A DNA stretch of 64,000 bases, from contig JBAZKF010000001.1 of NCBI GenBank assembly GCA_041650895.1, positions 637,181-701,180 on the forward strand, given 5' to 3'. Under the pieces are notes generated by a model. That model ran no database searches, was not told the DNA's origin, and saw only the letters and a program-made list of their open reading frames with translations. Below, piece by piece: positions 11,797 to 44,938 of this stretch. The stretch's first letter is position 1, and each line of letters opens with the position of its first letter. A program made the translations under genes and the position numbers. The DNA comes from Patescibacteria group bacterium (GTDB lineage Bacteria > Patescibacteriota > Patescibacteriia > 2-01-FULL-39-33).

Positions 11797-11799
11797 AAT

Positions 11800-14011: not shown

Positions 14012-14514
14012 AAACAAAACCGCATATAATTTTGGGCATTGACCCGGGTATCGCTGATACCGGTTTCGGCGTAATTGAAGAAAATTGCGGCCGGTTTAAA
14101 TTGTTTGATTACGGCTCTATTAAAACCGACAAACGAGAGAGTTTATCTTCAAGATTGTTGGACTTACATGAACAATTAACAATAATAATCAAAAAATATC
14201 GGCCGGAAGTAGCGGCGGTAGAACAATTGTTTTTTTGCACTAATACTAAAACCGCTCTGACTGTCGGCCAAGCCCGAGGAGTTATTTTGTTAACCTTGGC
14301 ACAAAACCAAACTAAATTGATTGAATTGACGCCACTGCAAGTCAAGCAAGGATTAACCGGTTACGGCCAAGCTGATAAAAAACAAATTCAACAAATGGTA
14401 AAAATCATCCTTAATCTCAAAACCAATCCCAAGCCTGATGACGCCGCTGATGCTTTGGCTATGGCCATTTGCGGCGCTGGCATTAATAAACTTAATTCCC
14501 GGATTAATTCATAA
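14005..14514 (+). CDS. ruvC: crossover junction endodeoxyribonuclease RuvC
   Basis: ILGIDPGIADTGFGVIE N-terminal catalytic Asp. Overlaps the yebC stop by 7 nt. The yebC-ruvC arrangement is conserved in bacteria. Confidence 0.85.
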   Translation: MVKTKPHIILGIDPGIADTGFGVIEENCGRFKLFDYGSIKTDKRESLSSRLLDLHEQLTIIIKKYRPEVAAVEQLFFCTNTKTALTVGQARGVILLTLAQNQTKLIELTPLQVKQGLTGYGQADKKQIQQMVKIILNLKTNPKPDDAADALAMAICGAGINKLNSRINS

Positions 14515-17473: not shown

Positions 17474-18220
17474 TTAATTTATAACTTCTGCTTTAGCAGG
17501 AATCATTTTCTTTTTTGTGATTAATTGTTGCAAAGAAGTGAATACTGTCAATAATAACCAATAGAACACTAAACCACTGGGCAGGCTCCAACCAATTACT
17601 ATGGTCATTAGAGGCATCATAACTGTCATTTGACGACTCATAATAGCTGACATATCCTCATCCTTACTGTCTTTATTCTTAATTACCGGACGTTTAGCAA
17701 TCATCATGGACGCTTGCCAATACTGCGCGGCACCAGCCAAAACAGCTAAAATCCATTGGGGTTTAGCCATATCTAAAAATCCAAAAGCTAAAGAGTTAAT
17801 GTGCCCGGGATTAGTAATAAAAGGATAAAGTAAAGACAAACTACCATTTCTTAAGCCAGTATTGAACACTTGATAAATAGCAATTAAAAAAGGCAACTGA
17901 ATAAGTAATGGTAGACAAGAGGAAAGTGGATTAATTTTATGTTCTTTATATAAATTCATCATCTCTTTGGCTTGTCGTTCTTTATCGTCTTTATATTTTT
18001 CTTTCATTTCATCAATCTTCGGTTGCAGTTCCTGCAGTGATTGTTGCGCCTTAATCGTACTGCGTGACGGTAAATATAAAGCTAATTTTATTAATAAAGT
18101 TAAAATGATTATTACTAAGCCAATATCGTGTCCAGGGATAGTATTGTAAACAAAAACCAATAAATTAAGTAATGGCTGGTAACAAATTAAATTAAAAATA
18201 TTTACAATTGAACTAATCAT
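17474..18220 (-). CDS. yidC: membrane protein insertase YidC (short form)
   Basis: Multi-TM protein with the conserved YidC core. Sits in the yidD-rnpA-rpmH arrangement next to dnaA. Confidence 0.85.
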   Translation of the reverse strand: MISSIVNIFNLICYQPLLNLLVFVYNTIPGHDIGLVIIILTLLIKLALYLPSRSTIKAQQSLQELQPKIDEMKEKYKDDKERQAKEMMNLYKEHKINPLSSCLPLLIQLPFLIAIYQVFNTGLRNGSLSLLYPFITNPGHINSLAFGFLDMAKPQWILAVLAGAAQYWQASMMIAKRPVIKNKDSKDEDMSAIMSRQMTVMMPLMTIVIGWSLPSGLVFYWLLLTVFTSLQQLITKKKMIPAKAEVIN

Positions 18221-18228
18221 AATTTTAA

Positions 18229-18483
18229 TTATTTTATTGGATCAAAACCGCCTTTGGAAAAAGGATTACATCTGAGAATGCGAATAAACGCCATGAATCC
18301 GCCTTTTATTATCCCATATTTATCTATAGCTTGATAACCATATTCTGAACAGGTCGGATAAAAACGACAATAGCCGTGGGGAAAAAAGTATTTGGGCATA
18401 CCATGATCAAAAGATAGTGTCCTTTGATAAAATATAATCAACTTTAAGACTAAAATTTTAGTAAAATTAGACAAAAAATTCAT
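18229..18483 (-). CDS. yidD: membrane protein insertion efficiency factor YidD
   Basis: [18 protein letters not shown]...ILRCNPF matches the YidD family. Confidence 0.8.
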
Positions 18484-18818
18484 ATAATCTTATCTTTTGC
18501 TAATAACTTGACTAAATCATTATTAAAACTAGAAAAATCTAATTTTTTACTGGGAACTAATGCTATAATTAATAAATCAATATTTTTAGTAAAATTAGAC
18601 AAATTATTGCCTATAATAGCCTTAGCCCTACGTCTAATCTTATTTCTTTCTACAGCTTTTCCACTTATTTTATTACTGACAATAACAGAAAAACGGCAAT
18701 GTTCTAAGTCATTATTTATAAATCTAATAATAAAGTTCTGACTTGAATCTTTTTTGCCGTTTTTGAATATCCTTTCAAATTCTTGTTTTTTAGAAATACG
18801 GTATTTATTGGCCAACAT
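18480..18818 (-). CDS. rnpA: ribonuclease P protein component
   Basis: Small basic protein with the RnpA RNR-like motif [13 protein letters not shown]. Overlaps yidD by 4 nt. Confidence 0.8.
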
Positions 18819-18842
18819 AGTGTAAATTTAGCCAAATTATAA

Positions 18843-18998
18843 TTATTTAGATCTAGTAGAAATGACTAATTTCTTCCTTCCTTTAGCTCTTCTTCTCTTT
18901 AAAACCAATTTACCAGTATGAGTCCTACTTTTAGCCCTAAAACCATGTTTTTTGACTCTTTTAACTTTATGAGGTTGATAAGTTCTTTTAGTTGCCAT
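18843..18998 (-). CDS. rpmH: 50S ribosomal protein L34
   Basis: Hand translation of the minus strand gives [51 protein letters not shown]. Not in the ORF track because it is under 60 aa. Confidence 0.85.
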
Positions 18999-18999
18999 A

Positions 19000-19162
19000 A
19001 AATACTAAAGATAATTATTAATAACTAAAGTAAAAATAACACTTTTTTTATAATAAGTCAATAAAAATTGTTATCCACAAGTTATTAACAGTTTTGATTA
19101 TCTTTAGTTTTTTGATCAGTTTCCAATTGTGGATAATTATGATAAAATGTTATTAACTTAAA
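19000..19162. promoter_or_regulatory. candidate oriC / dnaA promoter region with two perfect inverted DnaA boxes
   Basis: TTATCCACA at 19071-19079 and its reverse complement TGTGGATAA at 19128-19136 flank an AT-rich stretch. Located between rpmH and dnaA. Confidence 0.6.
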
Positions 19163-20629
19163 TTGAAACACTCTTTAATAACAGCTGATTATCTAATTAA
19201 TACTTTCAGTATGACACCACAAGAACTCTGGCAGGCCACTTTAGGAGAGTTAGAAACTTTATTATCTAAAGCTAACTTTACTACTTGGTTTAGACATACT
19301 AATATAGTTAGTTATGATGATAATAAGGTGGTTATTAATGTGCCTAATATTTTTACTAAAGAATATTTAGCTAAAAAATATCATAGTGCCATATTAAAAG
19401 CGATTAGAAATATTACTAATAACCCTAATTTAAAAGAAATTGAATATAAAATAGAATCATCAATTCAAAATAAAAGCGCCTTTACCAGACCAACAGAAAC
19501 TATAATTAACAATGAAGAAATAATTCCCGCCAAAGAAGTATTTAAAACTTCTAACCAAATAACTAATGAAAAACCTCTTAATAATAATAAAAATAATTTA
19601 AATTATAAATACACCCTTAATACTTTTATTGTAGGAAAAAATAATGATTTAGCTCATGCCGCATCTTTAGCGGTAATAAAATCACCTGGTACGGCTTATA
19701 ACCCTTTGTTTATTTATGGTGGTGTTGGATTAGGTAAAACCCATTTAATGCATGCTATTGGTAATAAAATATTGGAAAATAGCCAAGAAATGAAGGTTTT
19801 TTATACAACTTGTGAAAATTTTACCAATGATTATCTAACAGCTGTACGTAATCTTTCTGGCAACGGCCAACGCTCAATGGAAGATTTTAATAATAAATAT
19901 AGGACTTTAGATGTACTTTTAGTTGATGATATCCAATTTTTATCTAATAAAGAAAGAACAGAAGAAGTTTTTTTTAATATTTTTAATGAATTACATCAAA
20001 GCAATAAACAAATTATTATTTCCTCTGACCGGCCACCTAAAGCCATACCAGATATTGAACAACGTTTAATTTCCCGTTTTGAATGGGGAATGATTGTTGA
20101 TATTTCTATTCCTGATTTAGAGACAAAAATCGCGATTATTCAAGAAAAATTAAAAGAAAAAAATACAATTTTAGAAAATGATATTATTGAATATTTAGCT
20201 GGATCAATTAGAAATAATATCCGTGAATTAGAAGGTGTTTTAAATCGAGTAATTGCTTTAACTCAGCTACAAAATCGCTCTATTTCCTTAGAGGAAGTCA
20301 AACAAATTACTGCAGCTACAATTAGTAATAATCAAAAAAATAATTTAACTCCTAAAAACATAATTAAATTGGTTTCTGAATATTATGATATAACTATTGA
20401 TAATATTATCAGTCCTTGCCGTAAAAAGAATTTAACTGAACCGCGCCAAATTACTATGTATTTAATGCGGGAAGAACTTAAATTATCTTATCCGGTAATC
20501 GGCCAAGAATTAGGTGGGCGCGATCATACTACTGTTATTCATGCTTGTGATAAAATCATTAATCTTATTAAGATTAATGAAAAAATCAGACAAGATATAA
20601 ATATAATTAAACAAAAGTTATTTGTTTAA
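19163..20629 (+). CDS. dnaA: chromosomal replication initiator protein DnaA
   Basis: AAA+ Walker A GGVGLGKTHLMHAIGN. C-terminal domain IV helix-turn-helix. The true start may be the second Met (MTPQELW). Confidence 0.9.
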   Translation: MKHSLITADYLINTFSMTPQELWQATLGELETLLSKANFTTWFRHTNIVSYDDNKVVINVPNIFTKEYLAKKYHSAILKAIRNITNNPNLKEIEYKIESSIQNKSAFTRPTETIINNEEIIPAKEVFKTSNQITNEKPLNNNKNNLNYKYTLNTFIVGKNNDLAHAASLAVIKSPGTAYNPLFIYGGVGLGKTHLMHAIGNKILENSQEMKVFYTTCENFTNDYLTAVRNLSGNGQRSMEDFNNKYRTLDVLLVDDIQFLSNKERTEEVFFNIFNELHQSNKQIIISSDRPPKAIPDIEQRLISRFEWGMIVDISIPDLETKIAIIQEKLKEKNTILENDIIEYLAGSIRNNIRELEGVLNRVIALTQLQNRSISLEEVKQITAATISNNQKNNLTPKNIIKLVSEYYDITIDNIISPCRKKNLTEPRQITMYLMREELKLSYPVIGQELGGRDHTTVIHACDKIINLIKINEKIRQDINIIKQKLFV

Positions 20630-20959
20630 TTATAAATTAGAGGATAAACTGGTGATAAGTAATTATAACAGTTGAAAAGTTTTATCCTCAATTTTTCCCC
20701 TATAGGATAACTTGGTGATATTATCAATAATATAGTGATTTAAAAGTGTTGAAAAAGTGGTTTAATTGATTTATTAAGTGGAAAAATAATTTAATTAAAA
20801 TTTTACCTGACTTATAAAAAATTAAAACTGATTTAGATACTTTTTATCAACAAGTAAAATTTTAATAAACATTAAGTAATTATAGGATATATAATAGTTT
20901 TACCCATTAAGCAGTCCATTATTACTATTATTAATATATATACTATTATAAATAATAAT
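20630..20959. promoter_or_regulatory. AT-rich dnaA-dnaN intergenic region with degenerate DnaA boxes (alternative/second oriC module)
   Basis: TTATCCTCA, GGATAAACT and AGGATAACT motifs are present; ~80% AT. Confidence 0.4.
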
Positions 20960-22099
20960 ATGAAATTATCTTGTACTCAGGAAAATCTTAATCAAGCAAT
21001 AAATGTTGTTTCCCATATAGCGGGTAAAAATTCTAATTTACCTATTTTAGCTAATATTTTAATTAAAGCAGAAAATAAGAATTTAACCCTATCAGCAACT
21101 AATTTAGAAGTTGGAGTAACAATTAATATTAGAAGTAAAGTGGAAAATGATGGAGAATTTTCAATTGATGCTAAATTACTTAATAATTATATTTCTTTAC
21201 TGCCAAAAGACAGAGTTGATTTGGAATTAATTAATGAAGAATTAAAAATTCAATGCCAAAAACAGAAAACTAAAATAAAAGGCCAAAATACCTCTGATTT
21301 TCCTTTAATACCTAAAATTGAAAAAGAAAATCCTTATATTATTTCAGCTAAAAAATTACGAGATGCTATTTATAGTGTATTTTTTTCAGCTGCTAATTCT
21401 GAATTAAGACCTGAATTATCAGGCGTTTTAATGGATTTTTCAGCTGATAAATTGATTTTAGCCGCTACTGATAGTTACCGTTTAGCTGAAATAAAAATTG
21501 ATTATATTGAGAATAATAAAAGTCCTAAACTTAATAATAATGAAAAAGTTATTATTCCCGCTAAATCATTACAGGAAATATCTCGTATTTTAAGTGTATT
21601 TAAAGATGATAATAATTTGGAAATAATTGAAAACATAGAAATTTATACTAATGAAAACCAAATTATGTTTGTTTATAATGGTGTAGAATTTATTTCTCGC
21701 CTAATTGATGGCCAATATCCTGATTATAATCAAATTATACCTGCAGAATGCCCAAATAAAATAAAAGTTAATATTAATGAATTAATTAAAGCAGTAAAAG
21801 CTGCTAGTTTATTTGTAAAAAATGGAGTATTTGATATTAAATTAGATTATAATAAATCTCCTAATGAATTAATAATTATATCTTCATCTTCCCAAACAGG
21901 AGAAAATGAATCAATAGTAGAAATGGAAAAAATCGGTCTAGGAAATGAAATAATTTTAAATTATAAGTACTTATTAGATGGATTACAGGTATTAAATTCA
22001 GAAAAAGTAGAATTTTCTATTAGTGATCCTAATAATCCTTGTATTATTAGGGGTAAAAATAATGATTATCTTTATTTAATTATGCCTATTAGGCAATAA
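20960..22099 (+). CDS. dnaN: DNA polymerase III beta sliding clamp
   Basis: Three-domain beta-clamp signature, MKLSCTQENLNQAINVVSHIAGKNSNLPIL. Confidence 0.85.
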   Translation: MKLSCTQENLNQAINVVSHIAGKNSNLPILANILIKAENKNLTLSATNLEVGVTINIRSKVENDGEFSIDAKLLNNYISLLPKDRVDLELINEELKIQCQKQKTKIKGQNTSDFPLIPKIEKENPYIISAKKLRDAIYSVFFSAANSELRPELSGVLMDFSADKLILAATDSYRLAEIKIDYIENNKSPKLNNNEKVIIPAKSLQEISRILSVFKDDNNLEIIENIEIYTNENQIMFVYNGVEFISRLIDGQYPDYNQIIPAECPNKIKVNINELIKAVKAASLFVKNGVFDIKLDYNKSPNELIIISSSSQTGENESIVEMEKIGLGNEIILNYKYLLDGLQVLNSEKVEFSISDPNNPCIIRGKNNDYLYLIMPIRQ

Positions 22100-30019: not shown

Positions 30020-30355
30020 ATGAAATGTTTTTTGCATGCTAAAATTCATAAAGCAACCGTTACAAAAGCGGATGTTTCTTATATAGGCAGTATTACTATT
30101 GATAAAAACTTGCTAAAGAAAGTCGGAATTATGCCGGGTGAAAAAGTATTAGTAACCAGCAATACTACCGGAGCCCGTTTAGAAACTTATGTGATTAAAG
30201 GTGGGGCGGGAGAAGTCTGTATGAATGGAGCGGCAGCTCATTTGATTAAGGCGGGAGAAGAAGTTATTATTATGGCTTTTGAGTGGTCGAAAAAAATAAT
30301 CAAATCAAAAATTATTTTAGTTGATAAAAATAATGAATTTGTTAAAAATCTTTAA
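30020..30355 (+). CDS. panD: aspartate 1-decarboxylase (pyruvoyl-dependent)
   Basis: MKCFLHAKIHKATVTKADVSYIGSITID contains the G-S self-processing site. Confidence 0.8.
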   Translation: MKCFLHAKIHKATVTKADVSYIGSITIDKNLLKKVGIMPGEKVLVTSNTTGARLETYVIKGGAGEVCMNGAAAHLIKAGEEVIIMAFEWSKKIIKSKIILVDKNNEFVKNL

Positions 30356-30363: not shown

Positions 30364-30888
30364 ATGAAGCAATTAGATTTTCCAAAATTTATGCAAACTT
30401 ATGAATATGATTGTGGCACTAAAGCTTTGCAAGCCGTGTTGATTTATTATGGTATAGAGATACGTGAGGAACTACTAATTAAATATGCTAAAACTAATAA
30501 AAAAGAAGGAACATTAATAAAAGGAATTTTGCGTACTTTAAAAAAATATAAATTAAAATTTAATGACGGCCAACTGTCAATTAAGGACTTAAAAGATAAT
30601 ATTGATAAAAAGATTCCGACTATTTTGCTTTTGCAAGCCTGGAATCCGAAAAAGATTGATTATACTAATAGCTATCGCGATGGCCATTGGGTAGTTGCTG
30701 TCGGTTATACTAAAGATAAAATAATTTTTGAAGACCCTTATTTTTCTATTTGTACTTTTTTAACTAATAAGGAACTTGAAAAACGCTGGCATGGCCAAGA
30801 AAAAGTAAAACAAATAAAAAATTACGGTATAGTTGTTTATGGAAAAAATCCAACTTATGATTCTAAAAAAATAATCCATATGGATTAA
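30364..30888 (+). CDS. papain-like cysteine peptidase (C39-like domain)
   Basis: Catalytic Cys in YDCGTKALQAVLIYYG and His in DGHWVVAVGY. Confidence 0.6.
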   Translation: MKQLDFPKFMQTYEYDCGTKALQAVLIYYGIEIREELLIKYAKTNKKEGTLIKGILRTLKKYKLKFNDGQLSIKDLKDNIDKKIPTILLLQAWNPKKIDYTNSYRDGHWVVAVGYTKDKIIFEDPYFSICTFLTNKELEKRWHGQEKVKQIKNYGIVVYGKNPTYDSKKIIHMD

Positions 30889-30928: not shown

Positions 30929-33900
30929 CTATTTGGCGACACGGAAAACTTCTTCTACTGTTGTTTCTCCGGCCATGGCTTTTAAAATGCCATCCTGAAG
31001 CATTAAGACTGCGCCCTCCTTAACGGCCAGTTCTTCTATTTCTGAATTAGTAACCGCCGGTCCTTGCACCACTTTTTGCATTTCAGCGGTGTTTGGTATG
31101 ACCTCATAAATACCTAAGCGTCCTTTATAACCTAAACCGCCGCATTTTTCGCAACCAATCGCCTTAAAGTAAGTCGGGTTTTTTGGTATTTTGACTCCAG
31201 ATTTAGGATTAATACCCTTAATAATATTGGCCACTTCTTTGGCCGTCTCAGCATTAAGTTCATCCGGTTGCTTGCAATACTGACAAATCTTTCTGACTAG
31301 GCGCTGGCCGATAGTACATTCCAAGGAGTTAGCTAAAATATGCGGTTCAATGCCTAAACCCAAGAAACGGGGGAAAGCTCCGGCCGCGGAATTGGTATGG
31401 ATGGTGGATAAGACTAAATGACCCGTTAAGGCCGCTTCAATCGCTGTCTTGGCGGTTTCACTGTCACGGATTTCTCCGATCATCATGATATTAGGATTTT
31501 GACGTAATAAAGAGCGCATGGCTGCGGCGAAAGTGTAGCCTTGAGCTTCATCAATCTGTGTTTGCATTACGCCGGCCAAGTGGTATTCAATCGGGTCTTC
31601 TATGGTAATAATTTTAATATCCGGCTTATTGAGTTGGTTAAGTAAGGCGTATAAAGTAGTAGTCTTGCCTGAGCCGGTTGGTCCGGTAGTAACAATAATA
31701 CCCTTGGTCTTTTCCATTGATTCTTGTAAGGGCTTTAGAGCATACTCACGCATACCTAAATCTTCAATTTTTAGGCTGGCGGCTTGCGCCGATAAGATAC
31801 GGATGACAATTGTCTCACCGTAACCCCCGGAAATAATGGAAATGCGACAATCTTGTTTGACTTGTGGCGTGAAAATGCCGAAACGTCCATCCCAAGCCGC
31901 TTTTTTGATATTAGTCGGCATGCCGGCCAAAATTTTCATATTAGATAAGACCGGCAAATATTGGCCCTTATCCAAAGTAGCCATATCATACAGAATGCCA
32001 TCAATCCTGAAACGCACCTTAACGCCAGTATCAGTCGGCTCAATATGAATATCGCCGGCGTCCGCTTTAAGCGCCACCGCCATTAATAAAGCCGTCAGCT
32101 CTTTAGCTGGAAGATTTTCCAGTTCTCCTTGGATTTGTTTTAAATCTTTGGATAGTTCTTCGCCCTTAGTTAGCTCTTTGGCGGTCAGATTAATGCCACG
32201 GCCGATAGTTTGGGTAATGACTATGTCGTACAATTCTTCCACATAATCCAATTTACCAATAACGCGGAAAACCTCTTGTACGTCGGTAACGCCGTTCAGA
32301 GATTTAATAATGCCATCCTGCAACATTGTAATCATGCCGTTTTCAATCGCTTGTTTGAGAATTTCAAAGGCCGCTGCGCCATTCATAGTCAACTCTTTGA
32401 TGTTATCGGTCATGGTAAAAATTTCATAGATACCGATACGGCCCTTGTAGCCGATGCCGCCGCAAGCTTCGCAACCCGGTCCGGGTTCATACATCTGAGG
32501 TAAGTTTGCCGGTATGTCAATACCCGACTTAGGGGAAACGGTTGCTAATATTTTTTCTACCGTAATTTTTTCCTCTTCTGTAATTTGATGCGGTTGTTTG
32601 CATTTTTCGCATAATTTGCGTACCAAGCGTTGGCCGATAACCGCATTAATGGAGGGAACAATAAAGAAGGGTTTGATGCCCATATCCATTAAACGTGGGA
32701 TAACTCCAGCCGCGTCATTAGTATGGACGGTAGAAAGCACCAGGTGGCCTGTTAAGGCCGCTTGAGTAGCAATATCAGCTGTCTCATTATCGCGAATTTC
32801 ACCTACCATTACAATATCCGGATCTTGGCGTAAAATAGAGCGCAAGCCCTTGGCAAAGGTGTAGTCTTTTTTAGGATCAACTTGCGATTGATTAATGCCC
32901 TTGAGGCGGTATTCAATCGGGTCTTCCAGGGTGATGATTTTTACATCCGGATGATTAAGCTTATTAAGGACCGCGTATAAGGTCGTAGTCTTACCGGAAC
33001 CGGTCGGACCGGCAGTTAGAATTAAGCCGTTTGGTTTTTTTATTTCCGCTTCCAATGTTTTAAAGGCTGCCGGCAATAATCCTAATTGTTCAAAAGATAA
33101 GGCGATTGATTGGGAATGCAATAAACGCATGACTACGCTTTCGCCGAAATTAGTCGGCAGGAAAGACGTTCTGACATCTATTGCGTCATTTTCCAGGAAG
33201 ATGGTAAAACGGCCATCTTGAGGCTTGTCATCAATGTTGATTTTTGCTCGCGCTAAAATTTTAAGGCGGGCAATTATTTTTTTCCATTTATCTTTTTCAA
33301 TCATGGCCGAATCATGCAAGACACCGTCTACGCGCAAACGCACCACGATGCCTTTTTCTTCAGCTTCAATATGAACATCTGAAGCCTCAGCTTTGAGTCC
33401 AGTCGCCAGAATAATCGCCACTACATCAGTAATATTGACCTTATTGATCTTTTCATTTAAATCCTTAAAAGTCGTTATTTCTTTTTCAAAACGTTCAATA
33501 TCCTCTTTTTTTATTTCCACTCCACCCACTAAACGAGAGATTTTGGGTAAAGAATCATATAATTTGGCGGAACGTTCAAAACTATGCCGGGAGATAAGAT
33601 AAGGCAAAGCGTTGGCGTGAAACCTTTCCTGTAAAGCAGTTAATATTTTTTTGGCTTCATTATTATAATTTACACAGCCCACGCGCAGTTCCGAGCCGTT
33701 ATTGAAGAAACAGATTGTTTGAGTATCTTTGGCTGTTGACTCGTCAATAGAACTTAGGGCATCGGGAGAAATAGGGAAGCCAACCAGATTAATATAAGGC
33801 AAACCTAAAGCATCGGCGTTTTTGGCTACCTCGTCCTCTTTTTCTTTAATTTTTATTTGCGTTAATTTTTGTTGGAGCTGACCGCCTGTTGATTCTTTTT

Positions 33901-33958
33901 CGGCCGTCTCTCCTTCAGTTGTAAGATCCTCCAGTGATGGGCCTAAATTATCAGTCAT
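30929..33958 (-). CDS. pilB: tandem-duplicated (fused pseudo-dimer) type II/IV secretion ATPase PilB/GspE
   Basis: Two complete GspE/PilB units in one 1009-aa ORF. Each has an N2-like domain, Walker A (TAGPTGSGKTTTLYAVL and TTGPTGSGKTTTLYALL), Asp/His boxes and a tetracysteine zinc motif (CEKCKQ..CEACGG and CQYCKQ..CEKCGG). Confidence 0.85.
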   Translation of the reverse strand: MTDNLGPSLEDLTTEGETAEKESTGGQLQQKLTQIKIKEKEDEVAKNADALGLPYINLVGFPISPDALSSIDESTAKDTQTICFFNNGSELRVGCVNYNNEAKKILTALQERFHANALPYLISRHSFERSAKLYDSLPKISRLVGGVEIKKEDIERFEKEITTFKDLNEKINKVNITDVVAIILATGLKAEASDVHIEAEEKGIVVRLRVDGVLHDSAMIEKDKWKKIIARLKILARAKINIDDKPQDGRFTIFLENDAIDVRTSFLPTNFGESVVMRLLHSQSIALSFEQLGLLPAAFKTLEAEIKKPNGLILTAGPTGSGKTTTLYAVLNKLNHPDVKIITLEDPIEYRLKGINQSQVDPKKDYTFAKGLRSILRQDPDIVMVGEIRDNETADIATQAALTGHLVLSTVHTNDAAGVIPRLMDMGIKPFFIVPSINAVIGQRLVRKLCEKCKQPHQITEEEKITVEKILATVSPKSGIDIPANLPQMYEPGPGCEACGGIGYKGRIGIYEIFTMTDNIKELTMNGAAAFEILKQAIENGMITMLQDGIIKSLNGVTDVQEVFRVIGKLDYVEELYDIVITQTIGRGINLTAKELTKGEELSKDLKQIQGELENLPAKELTALLMAVALKADAGDIHIEPTDTGVKVRFRIDGILYDMATLDKGQYLPVLSNMKILAGMPTNIKKAAWDGRFGIFTPQVKQDCRISIISGGYGETIVIRILSAQAASLKIEDLGMREYALKPLQESMEKTKGIIVTTGPTGSGKTTTLYALLNQLNKPDIKIITIEDPIEYHLAGVMQTQIDEAQGYTFAAAMRSLLRQNPNIMMIGEIRDSETAKTAIEAALTGHLVLSTIHTNSAAGAFPRFLGLGIEPHILANSLECTIGQRLVRKICQYCKQPDELNAETAKEVANIIKGINPKSGVKIPKNPTYFKAIGCEKCGGLGYKGRLGIYEVIPNTAEMQKVVQGPAVTNSEIEELAVKEGAVLMLQDGILKAMAGETTVEEVFRVAK

Positions 33959-34186
33959 ATATATTTGCTTATAATGAAAGGAATGAGGTTTAAAACATGA
34001 TTTCTTTCTTTCTTATTGTTATTATACTTGATTTTTTATCCTCTTGACAAGTTTGTTTTGATTTGCTATAATTATACACAGGTGAAGGGTAGAAAAACCC
34101 CACGAACCTTGATAACTTATTTTCGCAGCTATTCCGCTTAATCGGGATATGTGGAAATGTTATCGGTTTATTATTAAGCAAAGAAT

Positions 34187-34528
34187 ATGGCTGAGAAAGA
34201 CCAAATGTTTGTAGAAACCATCGTCAAGGCGATTGTTGCCAACCCCGATGATGTCAGAGTCGACAGAACTGTCGACGAAAGAGGCGTCTTATTGACCCTC
34301 CACGTTGCCCCCACCGATATCGGTTACGTTATCGGCCGCCAGGGACAGACCGCCAAAGCGATTAGAACTTTGGCCAAAATCATCGGCGCTAAGAATAACG
34401 CCAGAGTTAACTTAAAGATCGACGAACCGGAAGGTTCCAGAGGTCCTCGCGCTTCTCGTCCTATGGACGCTGAAAGAACGGACACTGAGAGAGTTGATAC
34501 TGATATGGTTGATGACTTGAGCATCTAA
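34187..34528 (+). CDS. KH-domain RNA-binding protein (KhpA/YlqC-like) with acidic tail
   Basis: KH GXXG loop VIGRQGQTAKAIRTLAKI. In a trmD-type ribosomal operon context. Confidence 0.7.
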   Translation: MAEKDQMFVETIVKAIVANPDDVRVDRTVDERGVLLTLHVAPTDIGYVIGRQGQTAKAIRTLAKIIGAKNNARVNLKIDEPEGSRGPRASRPMDAERTDTERVDTDMVDDLSI

Positions 34529-36440: not shown

Positions 36441-36910
36441 TAGAGGGTAAAAACTTAACACCAAACTCTTTCCCAAAAGATAATCAAAATTAAGTTGTTT
36501 TATCCGCCAATACTAATATTGTAGCGGTATAAAAAAGGGAAAACAGTGGTATCTGAAATGAATTTTGTCCAGGACAAAGTTCGCCAAATCGGATCCCTCT
36601 GTTTTTTCTTAACTTGAAAAATGACTGTTAGGAAAAGTATTTTGACAACTGAATAGTGGTAAAAAGCACCAAACCAAAGAATTTAAATTTGAGTTTTTAT
36701 GAATTCGTTTCCGCCCCCGCGGAGTAAATCGAATTCAATACAATACTTTCAATCCAACTTTATGACAGCCGGTTCTCCGGTGCGCCCTTAGCGCAAGTCA
36801 TAAAGCGAAAAAAACGGTTGGCAACTGATCGTAATCTAGTTGCAAAGCCAGTTGAATGAATTTTTTTTATCTCACTTCGGTGTTGATAAGGAACCCTTTC
36901 ATTCTTCTTT

Positions 36911-38384
<1,474 letters not shown>

Positions 38385-38542
38385 AAGGAGAAATTGAGAC
38401 AGCTCTCACGAGTTTGTCTCATGGTCGCTCTTATGCTGAATAAGCATAAGAATGGGTTTGGTTAAACTTTTTACCGCTATTTAGTTGTCAAATTTAATTT
38501 CGTTCATTGAAATATTGATTCAACAGACAGGAGGAATGACAA

Positions 38543-38821
38543 ATGCGAGTCAGGGAAGCTTTTTTAGTTGACACCCCAATGGGTGGATCAAATTTGGGTA
38601 TTCCCGCCGGAAGCTTTGGCATCAGAGTCAGAGTTAAGTGCGAAATGGAAGATAAAGATGGATGCACCGATGATGAAGGCAGGCAAATTTTGGATGCTAT
38701 GAGTGAGCAGTTAGAACATAGAGAAGTAAGCGTCGTCAGTATGCAGAATAATCTGATAGGGGAAGGAAGATTTTTTGATGTTGCATTAATCTTTAAGTTT
38801 CCCAAAGAGAATGAAAGCTAA
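38543..38821 (+). CDS. hypothetical 92-aa protein encoded in the 16S-tRNA spacer
   Basis: Strong SD ACAGGAGGAATGACAAATG. Long clean ORF followed by a hairpin terminator (38841-38877). Confidence 0.5.
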   Translation: MRVREAFLVDTPMGGSNLGIPAGSFGIRVRVKCEMEDKDGCTDDEGRQILDAMSEQLEHREVSVVSMQNNLIGEGRFFDVALIFKFPKENES

Positions 38822-38942
38822 AAAGATTAGTATTTTATATCCCGCACCGCGGAAGAGCGGGAGTCGGGATTTTTTAATGAAAGATTGCTAAGAAAATACA
38901 ATTTTGTTATAGTAATATTATTGAAAATTGTAAATTAATTAT

Positions 38943-39016
38943 GCGCATATAGCTCAGTTGGTTAGAGCGCGTCACTGATAATGACGAGGTCCCAAGTTCG
39001 AATCTTGGTATGCGCA
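38943..39016 (+). tRNA. tRNA-Ile(GAU)
   Basis: GCGCATA TA GCTC AGTTGGTTA GAGC G CGTCA CTGATAA TGACG AGGTC CCAAG TTCGAAT CTTGG TATGCGC A. Confidence 0.9.
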
Positions 39017-39058
39017 CAGGAAGTTGAAATATAAAACTTAAAACTTAAAATTCAGAAT

Positions 39059-39130
39059 GCCGAGGTAGCTCAGTGGTAGAGCAGAAGACTGAAAATCTTT
39101 GTGTCGCGAGTTCAATTCTCGCCCTCGGCA
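39059..39130 (+). tRNA. tRNA-Phe(GAA)
   Basis: GCCGAGG TA GCTC AGTGGTA GAGC A GAAGA CTGAAAA TCTTT GTGTC GCGAG TTCAATT CTCGC CCTCGGC A. Confidence 0.9.
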
Positions 39131-39134
39131 CAGA

Positions 39135-39167
39135 ATTAATTCAGCCCCGCCGATTGCGGGGCTGAAT
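39135..39167. repeat. perfect 13-bp-stem hairpin between tRNA-Phe and tRNA-Pro
   Basis: AATTCAGCCCCGC CGATT GCGGGGCTGAATT. Confidence 0.6.
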
Positions 39168-39174
39168 TCAAAAT

Positions 39175-39248
39175 CGGGGTGTAGCTCAGTTGGCTAGAGC
39201 GCTTGCTTTGGGAGCAAGAAGTCGCAGGTTCAAGTCCTGTCACCCCGA
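39175..39248 (+). tRNA. tRNA-Pro(UGG)
   Basis: C1:G72 acceptor CGGGGTG/CACCCCG; anticodon loop TTTGGGA; T-arm GCAGGTTCAAGTCCTGT. Confidence 0.85.
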
Positions 39249-39327
39249 CATGATAGAACTTTCTAAAAATTTCGTCTAAGAAAAAGGCCGGGCATTTCTG
39301 CTCGGCTTTTTTGTACGATTTTTTAAA

Positions 39328-40092
39328 CTAACGACAAACAAGTATTAATGTCTCCGGTTCCATATTTTTGAAACCTAAAATAAAGTATCCTCGTCTAGTC
39401 AATTCAATCATGCGTTTTGAATAATTGGCTTTTTTAGTATTTCCCAGACGGAGAAAAACCAGATAATCGAAAATAAATTTTTTTATCCAGTCTCCAATAC
39501 AATCGGTAACTAACCAATCGGAAGTTCCAAAACTTTTAGCAATACACCTTTCGTAGCCCGTGACTAAATCTTCAATAACGCTATCAATATAATCATAATT
39601 AAGGTAAGTATTATAAGATAGTTTAATAAAGCTTTGAGTAATACCCGGTCCGCATTTTTTCCTGAGCTCCTTCATTAAATCCTTATGGTTTTTTTCTTGG
39701 TTTTTGTAGTATTCAGAATAGTAATCAATACTTTCTAGTAATATTTTGGATATAAAATCCATGGAACGGGAGTCAACAGAATATTCATGGTCTTTAGTAA
39801 GTTTTCTTCTCATGTGTCCATAAATTCCATCAGACATCCACTCAGGTTGAGGAAGCAATCGTTCTAAGGATAGGAATGATACTTTATGAACCGGCCGATC
39901 AGTAGCCAGTGACATTGCTTTTTTTATAGTTGGTTGGCTGATTTCCTCCCGAGAAAGAGTAGGGAATGCGCGCATAGTCGATAATCTTTGTAGCGGAACC
40001 ATTATTCTGGGAGTATCTTTGTACTTCCAACCGTTTTCTCTGAGATATTTACTGAAGTCTTTCATGACCACTTTCCTTTGTTTTTTTACCAC
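39328..40092 (-). CDS. hypothetical protein (254 aa), AT-rich, no recognisable domain
   Basis: Long ORF immediately downstream of the tRNA cluster terminator. Overlaps the upstream gene by 7 nt, so the two are probably co-transcribed. Confidence 0.5.
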   Translation of the reverse strand: MVKKQRKVVMKDFSKYLRENGWKYKDTPRIMVPLQRLSTMRAFPTLSREEISQPTIKKAMSLATDRPVHKVSFLSLERLLPQPEWMSDGIYGHMRRKLTKDHEYSVDSRSMDFISKILLESIDYYSEYYKNQEKNHKDLMKELRKKCGPGITQSFIKLSYNTYLNYDYIDSVIEDLVTGYERCIAKSFGTSDWLVTDCIGDWIKKFIFDYLVFLRLGNTKKANYSKRMIELTRRGYFILGFKNMEPETLILVCR

Positions 40093-40514
40093 TCAACGAC
40101 TATTCTGATAAATATATCATGTTCATAACTACCGTAAAACTTGTATGCTTCAGTGTCAATCTCAAAACAACATTTGAATCCCTGCTCCCTAAAAAAGGAG
40201 AGAACCTTCTTTCCGACTGCGGAATTATTGATTATTTTTTCCCAATTGGCGCAAAAATATTTATTCATTCTCGGATTACCAAATTCAATAAGGGTTTTCT
40301 GAATTTTTCTTTTTTCGGGAAAGCGTTTGATTTCTTCTATCATGTCCGCAAGCATATCATCAAGGGGAGGAGTACCGCAGCCACGCTTTTTGATCTCGCC
40401 TCGTCTTTCCAGCGCAGAATATAACATAGAAGCGGTTATTTCCCTTTCTTTTTCTTCTTTCATTTGTTTCTCAATTATTCCGTCTCTTAGTGTTTCAGCC
40501 AAAGTCTTTTCCAT
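40086..40514 (-). CDS. hypothetical protein (142 aa), charged N-terminal half
   Basis: Forms a two-gene cassette with 39328-40092. Confidence 0.45.
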   Translation of the reverse strand: MEKTLAETLRDGIIEKQMKEEKEREITASMLYSALERRGEIKKRGCGTPPLDDMLADMIEEIKRFPEKRKIQKTLIEFGNPRMNKYFCANWEKIINNSAVGKKVLSFFREQGFKCCFEIDTEAYKFYGSYEHDIFIRIVVEW

Positions 40515-40677: not shown

Positions 40678-41439
40678 ATGTATATTGAAGTGCTAAATAA
40701 TATTGGCCTGTCAACCAACGAAGCCAGGATTTATAATGCGCTTTTGGAGATAAAAACCGGTACAGTCAGCGCCATTTCCAAGCACGCCGGCATTGACCGG
40801 CGCAATGTTTATGACACCATTCATCGTTTAATCAAACAAGGATTGGTTTATCAGATTATGCCCAGGAAAACCTTGACTTACGCCCCAGTCAGCCCGGAAA
40901 AATTGCGCGAGTTCGTTGAGGAGAAGGTAAAAGAATTAGAAACCGCGCTTCCGGGTATGCTTAAAAAGTTTGATTTGGTGAGCCCGACCCAGCAAATCTC
41001 TATTTTTAAAGGTGTCAGGGGATTAAAGAGTTATATTAATTTAATCCTAAAAACCGGCCGAAACGTTTACGGTTTAGGCAGTAAGGGATCGTGGTTTGAT
41101 CCGCGCGTCAAGAATTTCAGCATCCGGGCTTGCCAGGAATGGAAAAAGAAGAAAATCAAAGGAAAATATATTTATGACGCAGAAATAAGAAACCATCCGG
41201 AGGTGATTAAATGGATCGGTGGGGCGTATAAATTTTTACCCGCCAAATATTCCTCTAACTCATCATTGGAAATTTTTGGCGATTACGTGGTTATTTATTC
41301 CGGCATGAGCCCCAAGGAATTGGATGATGATATTAGTTTTTTTGTTTTGCGCGATAAGACACTGGCGCATGATTACAGAAAATGGTTTGATTTGATTTGG
41401 GATTTATTGCCGGCGGCAGGCAAAAGCGGTAAAAAATAA
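40678..41439 (+). CDS. TrmB-family (sugar-responsive) transcriptional regulator
   Basis: N-terminal wHTH LSTNEARIYNALLEIKTGTVSAISKHAGIDRRNVYDTIHRLIKQGLV is typical of TrmB. Confidence 0.65.
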   Translation: MYIEVLNNIGLSTNEARIYNALLEIKTGTVSAISKHAGIDRRNVYDTIHRLIKQGLVYQIMPRKTLTYAPVSPEKLREFVEEKVKELETALPGMLKKFDLVSPTQQISIFKGVRGLKSYINLILKTGRNVYGLGSKGSWFDPRVKNFSIRACQEWKKKKIKGKYIYDAEIRNHPEVIKWIGGAYKFLPAKYSSNSSLEIFGDYVVIYSGMSPKELDDDISFFVLRDKTLAHDYRKWFDLIWDLLPAAGKSGKK

Positions 41440-41584: not shown

Positions 41585-44500
41585 ATGACTTTATTTTTAC
41601 AAAAAACAAAAAAAGCAGTCAGTCGAATCGGGACAGCTATCCTTAAAAACTTAGGATCAGCTGTTTTTTTATCAATTATTTTTATTTTGATTTTTCTTGG
41701 TTATAACTCAGTAAAAAAGATTAATGTAGCCCAAGCGCTGACAGGCGATAGTTTGGTCAGTTCACAATCCCAAAACTCAAACAGTATCGGTCAATATGAA
41801 AAATTTGAACTGACGTTCATTTTGGAAGGAAATTATTCTGATCCTTCGAACACCGCGACTTATAAAAATCCCTTTGATGCGGACCAAATAAAAGTTGATG
41901 TAATTTTTACACAGCCTGACGGTACACAAAAAATCATTCCTGCTTTCTACTATATGGAATATGATATTACTTCTACTAATCCCGAACGTTATGGCAACGG
42001 CCGAGACCCTTCTTGGAAAGCGCGTTTTACTCCTACGCAAATTGGTACGCATAATTACGTAATTAGAGTAATTGATAATAGTGGCACTCAGACTATTTCG
42101 GGGTCGAATACATTTCAATGTATTCCTTCATCTAAAAAAGGCTTTGTTCGCATTGATTCTCGCGATCCATATTTATTGCGTCGGACGACTGGCGAGCAGT
42201 TTGTTCCTATTGGTTATAATCAAAATTGCGCTGGAGCCGATACTGGAATAGCTTGGTGGACTACGCATTTTCAGAAGATGGTCGATAATGGCGTTACTTG
42301 GGAACGAGTTTGGATGACTAGTTATAATACTGGAGAGAACATAGAATGGACACCGAATAATATATATAATCCGCCACCTTATTATCATGGTGTGGGTCAA
42401 TATGGCATGGAAATTGCTTGGAGGTTGGATCATGTATTAGAGCTTGCTGAACAGAATAATATTGCCATCCAGCTTACTCTGCAGTATTTTCAGCAGTTTT
42501 TAAGTTATGATGAGTGGCGTAATAATCCTTATAACATCGCCAATGCGGCTTACGGCGGTTGGCTGACCGATCCGCAACAGTTTTTTACTAATACGGAAGC
42601 GCGACGTTTGACCAAAAATAAATATCGTTATATTGTGGCTCGTTGGGGTTATTCTACCGCTATTCATAGTTGGGAATTATTCAATGAAGTCGGATATTCA
42701 AGTGGAGCAAGCAGTAATGCCGCGGCGATTGTTGCGTGGCATACGGAAATGGCGCAATTCTTAAAAGATATCGATTCTTTTGATCATCTTATTACAACTA
42801 GTCTTGAAGCTGGTTATAATGAGTCCTTTGAGGATCCTTTTTGGCTACTCCCGAGCATAGACTTAGTGCAGGTCCACTCTTATTCAACGGATATTTTTTC
42901 TTATACGCAAACAGTAACGGAAAAGCTTCGTAAGTATGGGAAACCGATTTTTACGGCGGAGTTTGGCTTAAGTGCTGATAATAATTCTCCTGAACGCACT
43001 TATAATTCTTTTTCTGAACCGTACCGTTCGCAGCTTCTAGAAGGTTTGCATATGCATAACGCTATCTGGCAGGCGCTCCATCTAAAATCAGGCGCACATA
43101 TTTGGGAGGCTCCCTATGTTAATAATCTACAACTTTATAAACTTTATAAACCTTTATTTTTATATATTAACAGTGAGAGTTTAGGAGACAAGGCATTAGT
43201 AAGTACTGTGGCTAATTTAACTACGCAGAAGCAGTCTAATGAACCATTAGTTCAGGCAAATATTCCTGGGTTATCATTGTTTTACGATGTTCCACAACAA
43301 ACAACATTTACCGTAGATCAGTATGGGCAAATAGAGGGGCTTTCAAAGATGACCGGTCATTTGCACGGAAGTTGGCATGAAAATTTGCGTTCTGATCCGA
43401 TTTTACTGACAAATTTTGATGCGCCGGCGGTTTTGCAGGTTAATATTCCGCAAGTTGCGGCTAATGCTAATAATGGCATGAGTATTACTTTAGACGGAGT
43501 GATTGTGAAAACAGTGGCTCCACCGAGTGGCGCTACTAATTTGCAATATGAAGTGAATATTCCCGCCGGGTCGCATACTGTTCAGGTAAAAAACACTGGA
43601 TTTGATTGGATTCGTATAACCAACTATGCTTTTAGCAGTCCGACTTCAGCCGTTTTTAATTCGCATATATTGCGTAGTATCGGTTTGGTGGGAAACAATA
43701 CTGCTTATTTATGGGTTTACGATATCGGTAGCCAATATGGGTTGACAAATAATGGAGTGATTAATAGTGCGACATTTTCGCTACCCGGTTTCAGTAATGG
43801 CATTTATAATATTCAGTATTATAATACCTGGGGTACAGGAGGAATAATTAGTGAGACACAAGCTCAAGTAACGAACGGTATTTTGACGGGAACAATACCC
43901 AGCTTTTCAAAAGATATCGCTATCAAAGTAAAATTAGGATCAGTAGGGTCTTGTATTGAAAATTGGTCCTGCGGTGCTTGGTCATCCTGCTCTAATAGTA
44001 GTCAAACTAGAACTTGTGTTGATTCCAATATTTGCGGTACCACTAGGAATAAACCAATAGTTTATCAGTCCTGCTCTTTACCGTCTTCCGGTTGTACAGA
44101 AAATTGGTCTTGTGGCACTTGGTCGGCTTGCACCAGCTATAGTCAGAGTAGAGTCTGTACTGATACTAATAGCTGTGGCACTATTACCAGTAGGCCGGCG
44201 ATGTCTCAAACCTGCAGTATAACTTGCTCGCCAAAGTGGAATTGCACGGCCTGGTCGGGATGTTCTAATGGTAAACAAATTCGGACTTGTACTGATAGTC
44301 ACGGTTGTAAATTAGAAAGCACTAGACCGGCGGAAAGCCAGACTTGCGGCAGTTCTAATTCTTCTGGCCCAGCTGCCAACTCAACAATAATTAATTATGC
44401 GAATAAGGCCGGCTATTTCACTGGCCGAATGGTAAAGACAGCTGATAATCCAGCTATTTATCATGTAACTGAGAATGGTGATAGGCATCTATATGTTAAT

Positions 44501-44938
44501 GAAGCGACTTATTGGACTTGGCATACCGGTACCTGGAAAGAACAGCAGTTGGAAATAGTCACTCAGGCGTCTTTTGATGCTTTGCCGGAAGGCGAGCATG
44601 TCAATGTCAATCCTGGATCTAGGCTGATTAAATTTGATAACAGTCTCAGAACTTATATTATTTTTGGCGATAATAGTCTAAAGTATATAAACGAAGAGGC
44701 TGTAATAAAGTGGTTTGGATCAGGATGGGAAAGCAAGATAGTTATCATTCAGTCCGGTTTTGAAAATGATTATATTAAAAATGACACCGCCTTCATTGAC
44801 ACTGATGATGATGGCTTATCTGATAGTGATGAGACCGACATTTATAATACTCAGCCGACTAACGCTGATAGCGACGGCGATGGCTATAAAGACGGGCGAG
44901 AAGTTTTACTCGGTTATGATCCTAATTCAAAGGATTAA
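41585..44938 (+). CDS. large secreted multidomain glycoside hydrolase (GH5-like catalytic domain, 3x Cys-rich ~45-aa modules, C-terminal Ca-binding Asp-rich repeats)
   Basis: N-terminal TM/signal. Candidate catalytic acid/base WELFNEVG and nucleophile region FTAEFG (GH5-like). Three tandem modules C-x3-W-x-C-G-x-W-S-x-C-x5-Q-x-R-x-C-x-D-x3-C-G-T. C-terminus DTDDDGLSDSDETD...DSDGDGYKDG is thrombospondin-type-3 / dockerin-like. Confidence 0.65.
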   Translation: MTLFLQKTKKAVSRIGTAILKNLGSAVFLSIIFILIFLGYNSVKKINVAQALTGDSLVSSQSQNSNSIGQYEKFELTFILEGNYSDPSNTATYKNPFDADQIKVDVIFTQPDGTQKIIPAFYYMEYDITSTNPERYGNGRDPSWKARFTPTQIGTHNYVIRVIDNSGTQTISGSNTFQCIPSSKKGFVRIDSRDPYLLRRTTGEQFVPIGYNQNCAGADTGIAWWTTHFQKMVDNGVTWERVWMTSYNTGENIEWTPNNIYNPPPYYHGVGQYGMEIAWRLDHVLELAEQNNIAIQLTLQYFQQFLSYDEWRNNPYNIANAAYGGWLTDPQQFFTNTEARRLTKNKYRYIVARWGYSTAIHSWELFNEVGYSSGASSNAAAIVAWHTEMAQFLKDIDSFDHLITTSLEAGYNESFEDPFWLLPSIDLVQVHSYSTDIFSYTQTVTEKLRKYGKPIFTAEFGLSADNNSPERTYNSFSEPYRSQLLEGLHMHNAIWQALHLKSGAHIWEAPYVNNLQLYKLYKPLFLYINSESLGDKALVSTVANLTTQKQSNEPLVQANIPGLSLFYDVPQQTTFTVDQYGQIEGLSKMTGHLHGSWHENLRSDPILLTNFDAPAVLQVNIPQVAANANNGMSITLDGVIVKTVAPPSGATNLQYEVNIPAGSHTVQVKNTGFDWIRITNYAFSSPTSAVFNSHILRSIGLVGNNTAYLWVYDIGSQYGLTNNGVINSATFSLPGFSNGIYNIQYYNTWGTGGIISETQAQVTNGILTGTIPSFSKDIAIKVKLGSVGSCIENWSCGAWSSCSNSSQTRTCVDSNICGTTRNKPIVYQSCSLPSSGCTENWSCGTWSACTSYSQSRVCTDTNSCGTITSRPAMSQTCSITCSPKWNCTAWSGCSNGKQIRTCTDSHGCKLESTRPAESQTCGSSNSSGPAANSTIINYANKAGYFTGRMVKTADNPAIYHVTENGDRHLYVNEATYWTWHTGTWKEQQLEIVTQASFDALPEGEHVNVNPGSRLIKFDNSLRTYIIFGDNSLKYINEEAVIKWFGSGWESKIVIIQSGFENDYIKNDTAFIDTDDDGLSDSDETDIYNTQPTNADSDGDGYKDGREVLLGYDPNSKD

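Follow-up and report, generated by a model that had tools for sequence, protein, structure and literature searches.

PilB, the motor ATPase behind extension or secretion in type IV filament systems, belongs to the PilT/VirB11-like superfamily, and the PilBs known so far carry one ATPase unit per chain and act as homohexamers. Their ring is built of packing units, each formed where an N2 domain rests on the C-terminal ATPase domain (CTD) of the next unit; in PilB of G. metallireducens (GmPilB), two N2 arginine fingers (R271 and R286) detect the nucleotide in the adjacent packing unit, and a tetracysteine motif separates the PilB/GspE clade from PilT and PilU, which do not have it (PMC5424180). 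The PilB cycle has been described as a C2 closed-closed-open pattern rotating round the ring, and the coordination of the six sites (C2 rotary versus C3 alternating) has been inferred mainly from static structures (PMC5424180, PMC6858323). The present analysis concerns a motor of this kind with an unusual build, encoded in a stretch of 64,000 nucleotides of a Patescibacteria genome (contig JBAZKF010000001.1 of assembly GCA_041650895.1, positions 637,181 to 701,180 of the forward strand; this whole stretch is called the window), whose product of 1009 amino acids (aa) contains two PilB/GspE-type ATPase units, A and B, in tandem. This architecture is a conserved and apparently undescribed variant of a well-known motor. 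The reading favoured here, and held to be reasonably probable, is that the protein is a PilB-type motor ATPase derived from internal duplication of a linker-N2-CTD module, with both units active, and that it would form an A3B3 ring powering a type IV filament-like machine.

A tandem ATPase gene conserved in many Patescibacteria

The open reading frame (ORF) lies on the minus strand at 30929-33958, from an ATG at 33958 to a stop at 30931-30929, and its translation has no internal stop over 1009 codons; plus-strand coding for the same interval is ruled out, that reading being full of stops. An earlier reading of this DNA made from the sequence only (hereafter the sequence-only reading) had placed there a covalent fusion of two PilB/GspE ATPase units; it had the interval right, the strand is supplied here, and the fusion itself holds. 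In addition to the uninterrupted frame, Pfam T2SSE (PF00437) matches the protein in two stretches (E 3.8e-227), as does each of the NCBIfam GspE and PilB models, and a BLAST comparison of the halves aligns residues 132-566 with 575-1009 at 45% identity over 437 positions (E 3e-141). Because this alignment starts in the segment that joins N1 and N2 of unit A, the duplicated module consists of linker, N2 and CTD, and the order of the chain is N1, linker, N2 and CTD of unit A, followed by linker, N2 and CTD of unit B.

Unit A (residues 1-567) is a full PilB with N1, N2 and CTD, whereas unit B (568-1009) comprises linker, N2 and CTD and is devoid of N1 (T2SSE_N), so that the earlier description as two complete units stands for the first and fails for the second. 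The N1 docking domain, of the T2SSE_N/GSPII type, occurs once per chain, ahead of unit A, at residues ~45-130 (33569-33826, minus strand as for all parts of the gene): alignment to the NCBIfam PilB model starts at residue 19, PF05157 is on record for many homologues and is not among the 25 of 38 Pfam families listed for the protein, and an AlphaFold2 (AF2) monomer model, computed from a 59-sequence alignment, shows a beta/alpha fold at 81-136, with residues 1-44 of low confidence or as a long helix. The N1-N2 linker of unit A (131-175; 33434-33568) is delimited by the alignment of the halves and by AF2, and N2 (176-293; 33080-33433), with R250, R263 and R278, by the core alignment, the mapping to GmPilB and AF2. 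The CTD of unit A (294-567; 32258-33079) carries the Walker A motif at 317-325, the Asp box at 345-349, the Walker B region with the catalytic glutamate E387 at 379-390, the His box at 405-414 and the zinc tetracysteine motif at 450-499. The inter-unit linker (568-615; 32114-32257) and the N1-N2 linker of unit A are homologous and have a helix-strand-helix-helix pattern in common; the former contains a flexible hinge at 581-586, where the predicted local distance difference test score (pLDDT) of the model falls below 50. In unit B, N2 (616-735; 31754-32113) keeps R692, R705 and R720 and has the derived residues G635, N673, P681, W689 and S710, and the CTD (736-1009; 30932-31753) carries Walker A at 759-767, the Asp box at 787-791, NPN...GEIRD at 821-832 (E829), the His box at 847-856 and the zinc tetracysteine motif at 892-939. 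All the motifs quoted by the sequence-only reading (Walker A, Asp box, Walker B, His box and tetracysteine) were found in both halves: GPTGSGKTTTLY occurs at 317-328 and again at 759-770, EDPIE at 345-349 and 787-791, GEIRD at 386-390 and 828-832, and four cysteines in each half at 450/453/496/499 and 892/895/936/939, while HTNDAAGVIPRLMDMGI at 412-428 of unit A is matched by the differing HTNSAAGAFPRFLGLGI at 854-870 of unit B.

The fusion recurs far beyond this genome. In a collection of 5.8 billion proteins clustered at 90% identity, the best 120 clusters were examined and all 120 are the fusion, with lengths of 992-1029 aa and 59-93% identity over 95-100% of the query; their source assemblies, from NCBI, JGI, ENA and Logan, are labelled Buchananbacteria, Falkowbacteria, 'Parcubacteria group' or 'Patescibacteria group', and their annotation reads 'GspE/PulE family protein' or 'PilB' and nothing further. 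A tblastn scan of one genome per GTDB species matched 233 relatives, the best 80 of which were examined, and each of these gave a single segment over residues ~1-1009 at 58-93% identity; among the 80 is the closed 977-kb Falkowbacteria chromosome CP066698.1. In a library clustered at 50% identity, about 14 representatives have two full cores (978-1047 aa, down to 39% identity), the named members of these distant clusters being Parcubacteria/Paceibacterota, and next in order come single-unit PilBs, 550-590 aa long and aligned to query residues ~24-567. The inter-unit linker is of fixed length, with a gap fraction of 0.001 across 121 aligned sequences, and measures 39-52 residues, mostly 47-48, in the distant representatives. 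The tandem fusion is a conserved family in many Patescibacteria.

The catalytic equipment of the two units was compared on a core alignment of N2 and CTD from 132 fused proteins (A and B taken apart) and 120 single-unit representatives, with residues mapped to GmPilB by HMMER alignment to 5TSG and roles taken from its structural description (PMC5424180). Both units have the Walker A lysine (K323 in A, K765 in B), the Mg-binding glutamate of the Asp box (E349, E791; E357 in GmPilB), the catalytic glutamate (E387, E829; E395), the threonine equivalent to T411 (T403, T845), the His-box histidines (H405 and H412, H847 and H854; H413 and H420), the N2 arginines (R250, R263 and R278, R692, R705 and R720; R257, R271 and R286), the inter-chain arginine (R447, R889; R455), the pore-loop glutamate (E392, E834; E400) and the zinc cysteines (C450, C453, C496 and C499; C892, C895, C936 and C939). 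In both halves of the 132 fused proteins these residues are 97-100% conserved, save the pore-loop glutamate at at least 85-90%; the Asp box as a whole (E345-D346-E349, E787-D788-E791) together with G386-E387 and G828-E829 reaches about 97-100%, and GPTGSGKT, EDPIE, GEIRD and H..H, the hallmarks of the PilT/VirB11-like superfamily, 97-100%. The neighbour-sensing arginine fingers R263/R278 and R705/R720, which correspond to R271 and R286 of GmPilB, are invariant, and the inter-chain arginine and the tetracysteine motif, a trait of the PilB/GspE clade, are 99-100% conserved in both halves. As the mechanistic residues are kept in A and B alike, both ATP sites are probably active. The AF2 monomer (mean pLDDT 82.8) gives each core a bilobed fold of N2 and CTD, which superposes in Foldseek on PilB and PilF chains (5TSH, 5TSG, 5OIU, 5IT5) with TM scores of 0.91-0.93 and root-mean-square deviations of 2.2-2.9 Å.

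Ring assembly and the machine it may drive

The proposed PilB-type motor, used for type IV filament extension or secretion, would have originated by internal tandem duplication in an orphan Parcubacteria paralogue. Three chains would close into a single ring of six units, A alternating with B (A3B3). Of the two kinds of contact between N2 and CTD in such a ring, one would be made within a chain, and neighbouring units would be tethered by the 48-residue linker, which goes back to the N1-N2 linker; this covalent link would favour ring assembly. All six sites would be catalytic and fire in the usual rotary cycle, and the ring would bear three N1 docking domains, not six. As its sequence symmetry would be three-fold, with one A and one B always at positions i and i+3, the sites that fire together in the C2 cycle (closed-closed-open twice) would be non-identical, because one is always A and the other B. 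That the motor powers a type IV filament-like machine, with the remaining genes elsewhere in the genome, is a less certain part of the proposal. Given how rings of this class are packed, A3B3, the trimer of dimers of the sequence-only reading, would be the likeliest and most economical assembly; a type IV filament motor is favoured by homology and by the presence of N1, pore loop and zinc motif.

Several results weigh against this proposal. Each half alone scores below both NCBIfam cut-offs, 675.65 bits for PilB (TIGR02538) and 630.25 for GspE (TIGR02533), half A reaching 474.5 and 492.9 bits and half B 387.2 and 410.6, and the full chain passes them (850 and 893 bits) because the scores of the two units add up. 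With a predicted template modelling score (pTM) of 0.48, the AF2 monomer does not define how the halves lie to each other. In a neighbour-joining tree of 161 cores (Kimura distances, 100 bootstraps), the A halves are interspersed among the closest single-unit PilBs and form no single clade, and in distant members the identity between A halves (45-54%) is barely above that between A and B (40-49%), so that a single origin is supported mainly by the signatures shared among B halves. Pfam scans covering every ORF of 100 aa or more in the 64-kb window found no T2SSF/PilC, PilM/N/O, pilin, prepilin peptidase or PilT, and a scan of its six frames no prepilin motif, which bears out the earlier statement that pilC, pilM and pilin genes are missing from the window. 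Likewise, in 94 related loci, the 8-10 kb around the gene hold none of pilC, pilM/N/O, pilin, prepilin peptidase and pilT. With no pilus genes nearby, it is by homology alone that the protein is assigned to a pilus machine.

What surrounds the gene in its relatives may speak for another function. When all flanking ORFs of 89 loci were clustered, a polytopic membrane protein of 326 aa was found directly upstream on the same strand in 79 of them (median gap 16 nt), a Translin-family gene at position +1 in 69 and at +2 in 4 more (median gap 12 nt), and a Metallophos_2 phosphoesterase gene at +2 in 58 (median gap 3 nt). The arrangement of membrane protein, tandem ATPase, Translin-family and Metallophos_2 genes, seen in 58-79 of the 89 loci depending on the gene, covers L003-L007 and 74 loci among L015-L089 (in L003, at 9020-9997, 10001-13012, 13022-13597 and 13601-14098). 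Of the single-unit relatives, P0135 has a homologue of the membrane protein upstream (L093:6673-7986; hidden Markov model (HMM) E 5e-55), and P0149 a homologue of a DHH protein, with tsaE, polA and tsaD around. This DHH-family protein, of 383-445 aa, stands immediately upstream of the ATPase beside a divergent tsaE in two distant fused loci (L008:8823-9974, L009:8710-9879) and in a single-unit locus (L094:6605-7942), the three proteins being 31-35% mutually identical. The membrane protein has 428 homologues, all 'hypothetical' and all in Patescibacteria; in Pfam it gives weak matches to DUF7847/DUF7544 and nothing else, its predicted structure is confident and all-helical (pTM 0.73), and a Foldseek search of the PDB returned nothing significant, the best match being choline-transporter-like (E 0.085). 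It is not PilC, an identity ruled out by the lack of a T2SSF match and of a significant structural match.

These neighbours would fit a motor that serves something other than a pilus, an orphan paralogue, single or tandem, driving a different Parcubacterial membrane system around the 326-aa protein and perhaps linked to the handling of nucleic acids. In its favour are the frequency of the upstream membrane protein, its sharing with P0135, the DHH protein that takes its place in P0149, L008 and L009, and the Translin-family and Metallophos_2 genes downstream; moreover, the membrane protein is not the PilC platform, and no type IV pilus gene, second T2SSE ATPase, pilin-like gene or prepilin motif was found in any flank examined. 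This reading is nevertheless considered unlikely, as streamlined genomes of the candidate phyla radiation (CPR) pack unrelated housekeeping genes tightly, and tsaE, polA, ruvB and tRNA synthetases also flank the ATPase. The lineage of the window, whose loci (at least 73% identity) have KH/trmD and tsaE/tsaD surroundings in common, is without these partners, HMM searches of the 64 kb having found neither the membrane protein nor the Translin-like, phosphoesterase or DHH partner, yet its ATPase is intact. In addition, the protein retains N1, pore loop and zinc motif as in true PilB/GspE, and type IVa pilus genes are often scattered over several loci (PMC6668835). A fuller version, to which equally little credence is given, would make the tandem ATPase and its single-unit sister a distinct orphan branch that does not assemble pili and energises a new membrane system around the 326-aa protein, coupled to the Translin-like protein, the YfcE-like metallophosphoesterase and the DHH phosphoesterase. 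If true, the non-pilus system could serve DNA or RNA uptake or salvage in organisms unable to make nucleotides, and the A3B3 pseudo-hexamer would be an adaptation to this task.

Another possibility concerns the geometry of the PilB-type motor rather than its task: six chains could form two stacked hexameric rings (A6 and B6, with 12 sites). Tandem ATPase domains are generally known to stack in other ring ATPases such as p97, NSF, ClpB and KaiC, a linker of 48 residues could serve either geometry, and the AF2 model leaves the arrangement unfixed. We know of no stacked form in the PilT/VirB11-like superfamily, however, and only unit A has the N1 docking domain. The PilB-class ring forms by packing of N2 on the next CTD (PMC5424180), and a pore-loop glutamate and an inter-chain arginine in both units are expected if both line one pore, so that stacking is regarded as improbable.

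The asymmetry of the two units has to be weighed in the same way. The sequence-only reading had called the halves clearly diverged, which is true in a one-sided manner: departures from residues that are at least 80% conserved in single-unit PilBs all fall in unit B and none in unit A. In N2, these are S193 to G635, the loss of R231 (E, N or Q at 673), K239 to P681, Q247 to W689 and P268 to S710; in the CTD, P309 to T751, G371 to A813, D379 to N821, D381 to N823 and L423 to F865. N821 is present in 97% of B halves, while aspartate at 379 is found in 100% of A halves and single-unit proteins, and the B halves of all 12 main-family representatives have lost R231 and carry G371A. Mean pairwise identity is lower among B than among A halves, both in N2 (64% versus 69%) and in the CTD (68% versus 73%), and Kimura distances are larger (1.08 between B halves, 0.92 between A halves); by these measures unit B is evolving somewhat faster than unit A. 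As every consensus departure falls in it, B is probably the derived partner. The structural account of GmPilB gives no role for the positions that are specific to B (R238, D387, Q254 and P276 in GmPilB numbering; PMC5424180). Has unit B then become a degenerate, non-catalytic pseudo-ATPase with a regulatory or scaffold function? The concentration of changes in B, among them D379N and D381N beside Walker B and the missing R231 of N2, and its faster evolution would agree with this, but the Walker A lysine, the Asp-box glutamate and aspartate, the catalytic glutamate, both histidines, the N2 arginines and the cysteines are 97-100% conserved in the 132 B halves, which makes a pseudo-ATPase very unlikely.

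Still less credible is a chimera of extension and retraction, in which a PilB (A) would be joined to a PilT-like retraction unit (B). CPR pilus clusters encode both PilB and PilT (PMC6744442), and a fusion could couple the two; against this, unit B keeps the tetracysteine motif, nests among PilB-like sequences in the tree, and scores far higher on GspE and PilB than on pilT_fam (TIGR01420), where halves A and B give 180.8 and 160.0 bits for a cut-off of 319.1, or on ComGA (NF041000), where they give 245.1 and 236.0 bits for a cut-off of 300. Because its GspE/PilB scores so far exceed those for PilT and ComGA, unit B is best taken as a derived PilB unit; its identity as PilT is refuted at the sequence level. 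Finally, that an assembly or frameshift artefact joined two adjacent pilB genes, the case named by the sequence-only reading as the one that would undo the fusion, has the unusual length of the protein in its favour and nothing more, and can be dismissed as far as assemblies (reads aside) allow, because the full-length ORF recurs uninterrupted across independent NCBI, JGI, ENA and Logan assemblies, in all 120 clusters and the best 80 of 233 genomes examined (at least 80 species-level genomes, the closed chromosome CP066698.1 included), with an inter-unit linker of fixed length.

Origin and genomic setting

In the tree of 161 cores, one group unites the B halves of the 12 main-family representatives with truncated pieces of fused proteins. 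None of the 100 bootstraps recovered A, B or both together as strictly monophyletic, because truncated fused proteins were counted as 'single' and because in three proteins, P0126, P0128 and P0136, A is sister to B. The halves of P0128 (L092:3226-6213) are 74% identical and those of P0126 (L091:8001-10985) 57%, against 40-51% in other members, and the B halves of both are without the B-signature residues. Since both loci retain the tsaE/polA/ruvB neighbourhood of the main family, their sequences suggest re-duplication, or gene conversion between the halves, as likelier than an unrelated event. P0136 (L090:8001-11144; GCA_964384625.1) is of another kind: its 1047 aa comprise an N-terminal PilC-type T2SSF region (78.5 bits) and two T2SSE units, its genome does not look like that of a CPR bacterium (ECF sigma/anti-sigma, sulfatase and MoxR/BatA neighbours), and from these features it appears to be an independent fusion of a platform with a double motor. 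The nearest single-unit relatives of the main family, P0135 and P0149, are from Parcubacteria and have tsaE-linked loci in common with it. As they occupy the same kind of locus, the tandem fusion is, on this comparative evidence, descended from an orphan single-unit PilB-like paralogue already outside pilus clusters.

In the window itself, which is a typical CPR stretch carrying tsaD, tsaE and trmD among others, the gene faces a KH-domain gene (34187-34528, plus strand) that lies upstream and is divergent. A promoter-like site, TTGTCA-18-TATAAT (34021-34050, minus strand; 11 of 12 positions match the consensus), precedes the ATG by ~60 nt; back-to-back with it, the KH gene has a perfect consensus promoter on the plus strand (34021-34072 for the pair), and these sites suggest that the ATPase gene is a monocistronic unit. 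The C39-like peptidase gene (30364-30888, plus strand), taken for the upstream neighbour by the sequence-only reading, is in fact convergent and stands at the 3' side, downstream on the opposite strand; it is kept next to the ATPase in the closest relatives only and is for this reason no functional clue. Between it and tsaE is a gene for PanD, aspartate decarboxylase (30020-30355). The gene tables of the 93%-identical relatives L001 and L002 show none between C39 and tsaE, and in the 92%-identical L010, ORF clustering places a 111-aa ORF of the PanD cluster there.

Other features of the window were recorded on the way. The neighbourhood of a replication origin lies at 17474-22099, with minus-strand yidC and rnpA and plus-strand dnaA and dnaN in a sharp GC trough of 25-27% compared with ~40% elsewhere. 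The 16S gene (36908-38382) is followed by tRNA-Ile, tRNA-Phe and tRNA-Pro (block 36908-39249) and is unlinked from the 23S gene, which starts ~24 kb away at 62789 (to 64000). Just after the 16S-tRNA block are two overlapping minus-strand ORFs of 142 and 254 aa (39328-40514) without Pfam match, adjoined by a gene for a TrmB-family regulator (40678-41439). A predicted surface protein of 1117 aa is encoded at 41585-44938, with DUF5060 at its N-terminus, a Cys-rich 'W(S/N)C..WS.C' module that recurs, and a TSP3 repeat at its C-terminus; the 93%-identical relative L001 encodes it too (1374-4730), near the fused gene. Lastly, nine genes run on the minus strand at 50778-62086, namely a DUF6638 gene, one for a 649-aa AAA-domain protein, one with a weak DUF4241 match and six without Pfam match; their GC content is 44-48%, with a strong AT-skew dip at 58-60 kb, and a PADLOC scan of this block (50.8-62.1 kb) returned no matches.

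Significance and comparison with described systems

Fused sequences have been public since the Parcubacteria genomes of the 2015 era (for example KKU82539.1), and a tandem PilB/GspE motor ATPase is undescribed in the literature searched, full text included, though absence there is not proof; no tandem motor ATPase is mentioned in PMC6668835, PMC10191384, PMC11656802, PMC6744442 or PMC5013675. Nor does the PDB sequence set hold a chain with two such ATPase units, the longest relative there being PilF. A natural chain with two non-identical, fully equipped units would amount to an evolution-tested 'linked dimer', in which one class of positions can be mutated alone, and an A3B3 ring would set a built-in three-fold sequence symmetry against the two-fold cycle of PilB, with three docking domains left; these features would open subunit coordination and docking stoichiometry to direct tests. 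Besides, the gene is a widely distributed feature of a large and poorly understood part of the bacterial tree, where it is annotated just as 'GspE/PulE family protein', and since it stands outside pilus clusters and beside a membrane protein of no known family, it may mark an unrecognised machine.

PilB (5TSG, 5TSH and 6OLJ of G. metallireducens; 3JC8 of M. xanthus) is the best match of each unit in both sequence and fold (E about 1e-101, TM 0.91-0.93). Unit A has its N1-N2-CTD order, and the catalytic, arginine-finger, His-box, pore-loop and zinc residues are all present. The differences are the two units in one chain, the second without N1, the position of the gene away from pilus genes, and scores of each half below the NCBIfam PilB cut-off. 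GspE/EpsE (1P9R, 4PHT) shares the clade, the zinc motif and the N1 domain, which in GspE docks on GspL, and is the best NCBIfam model for both halves. To obtain the GspE ring, a covalent aid, Hcp1, was reportedly needed; compared with that engineered GspE-Hcp1 fusion hexamer (4KSR/4KSS), the covalent aid is here natural and is a second ATPase unit. In contrast to the GspE setting, CPR bacteria have no secretin or outer-membrane system (PMC6744442).

Internal duplication is not foreign to type IV filament machines. PilF of Thermus thermophilus (6F8L, 5IT5, 5OIU; 913 aa) is likewise a long PilB-class protein derived from internal duplication, but in that case the N-terminal GSPII/MshEN domains were multiplied ahead of a single ATPase core, whereas here the core itself is duplicated. 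The PilC/GspF platform, with its internal duplication and its fission in Tad/Epd, is a type IV filament precedent for a pseudo-dimer; it is, however, a membrane platform and not a motor, and the surveys that describe it mention no duplication of the motor ATPase (PMC6668835, PMC10191384).

Outside this superfamily, p97/Cdc48, NSF, ClpB and KaiC likewise carry two diverged P-loop ATPase modules per chain. They belong to other superfamilies (AAA+ or RecA-like) and form stacked double rings of six chains; for the tandem PilB-type protein, alternation of the two units within one ring would be more natural than stacking, because the PilT/VirB11-like ring is made of N2-on-CTD packing units.

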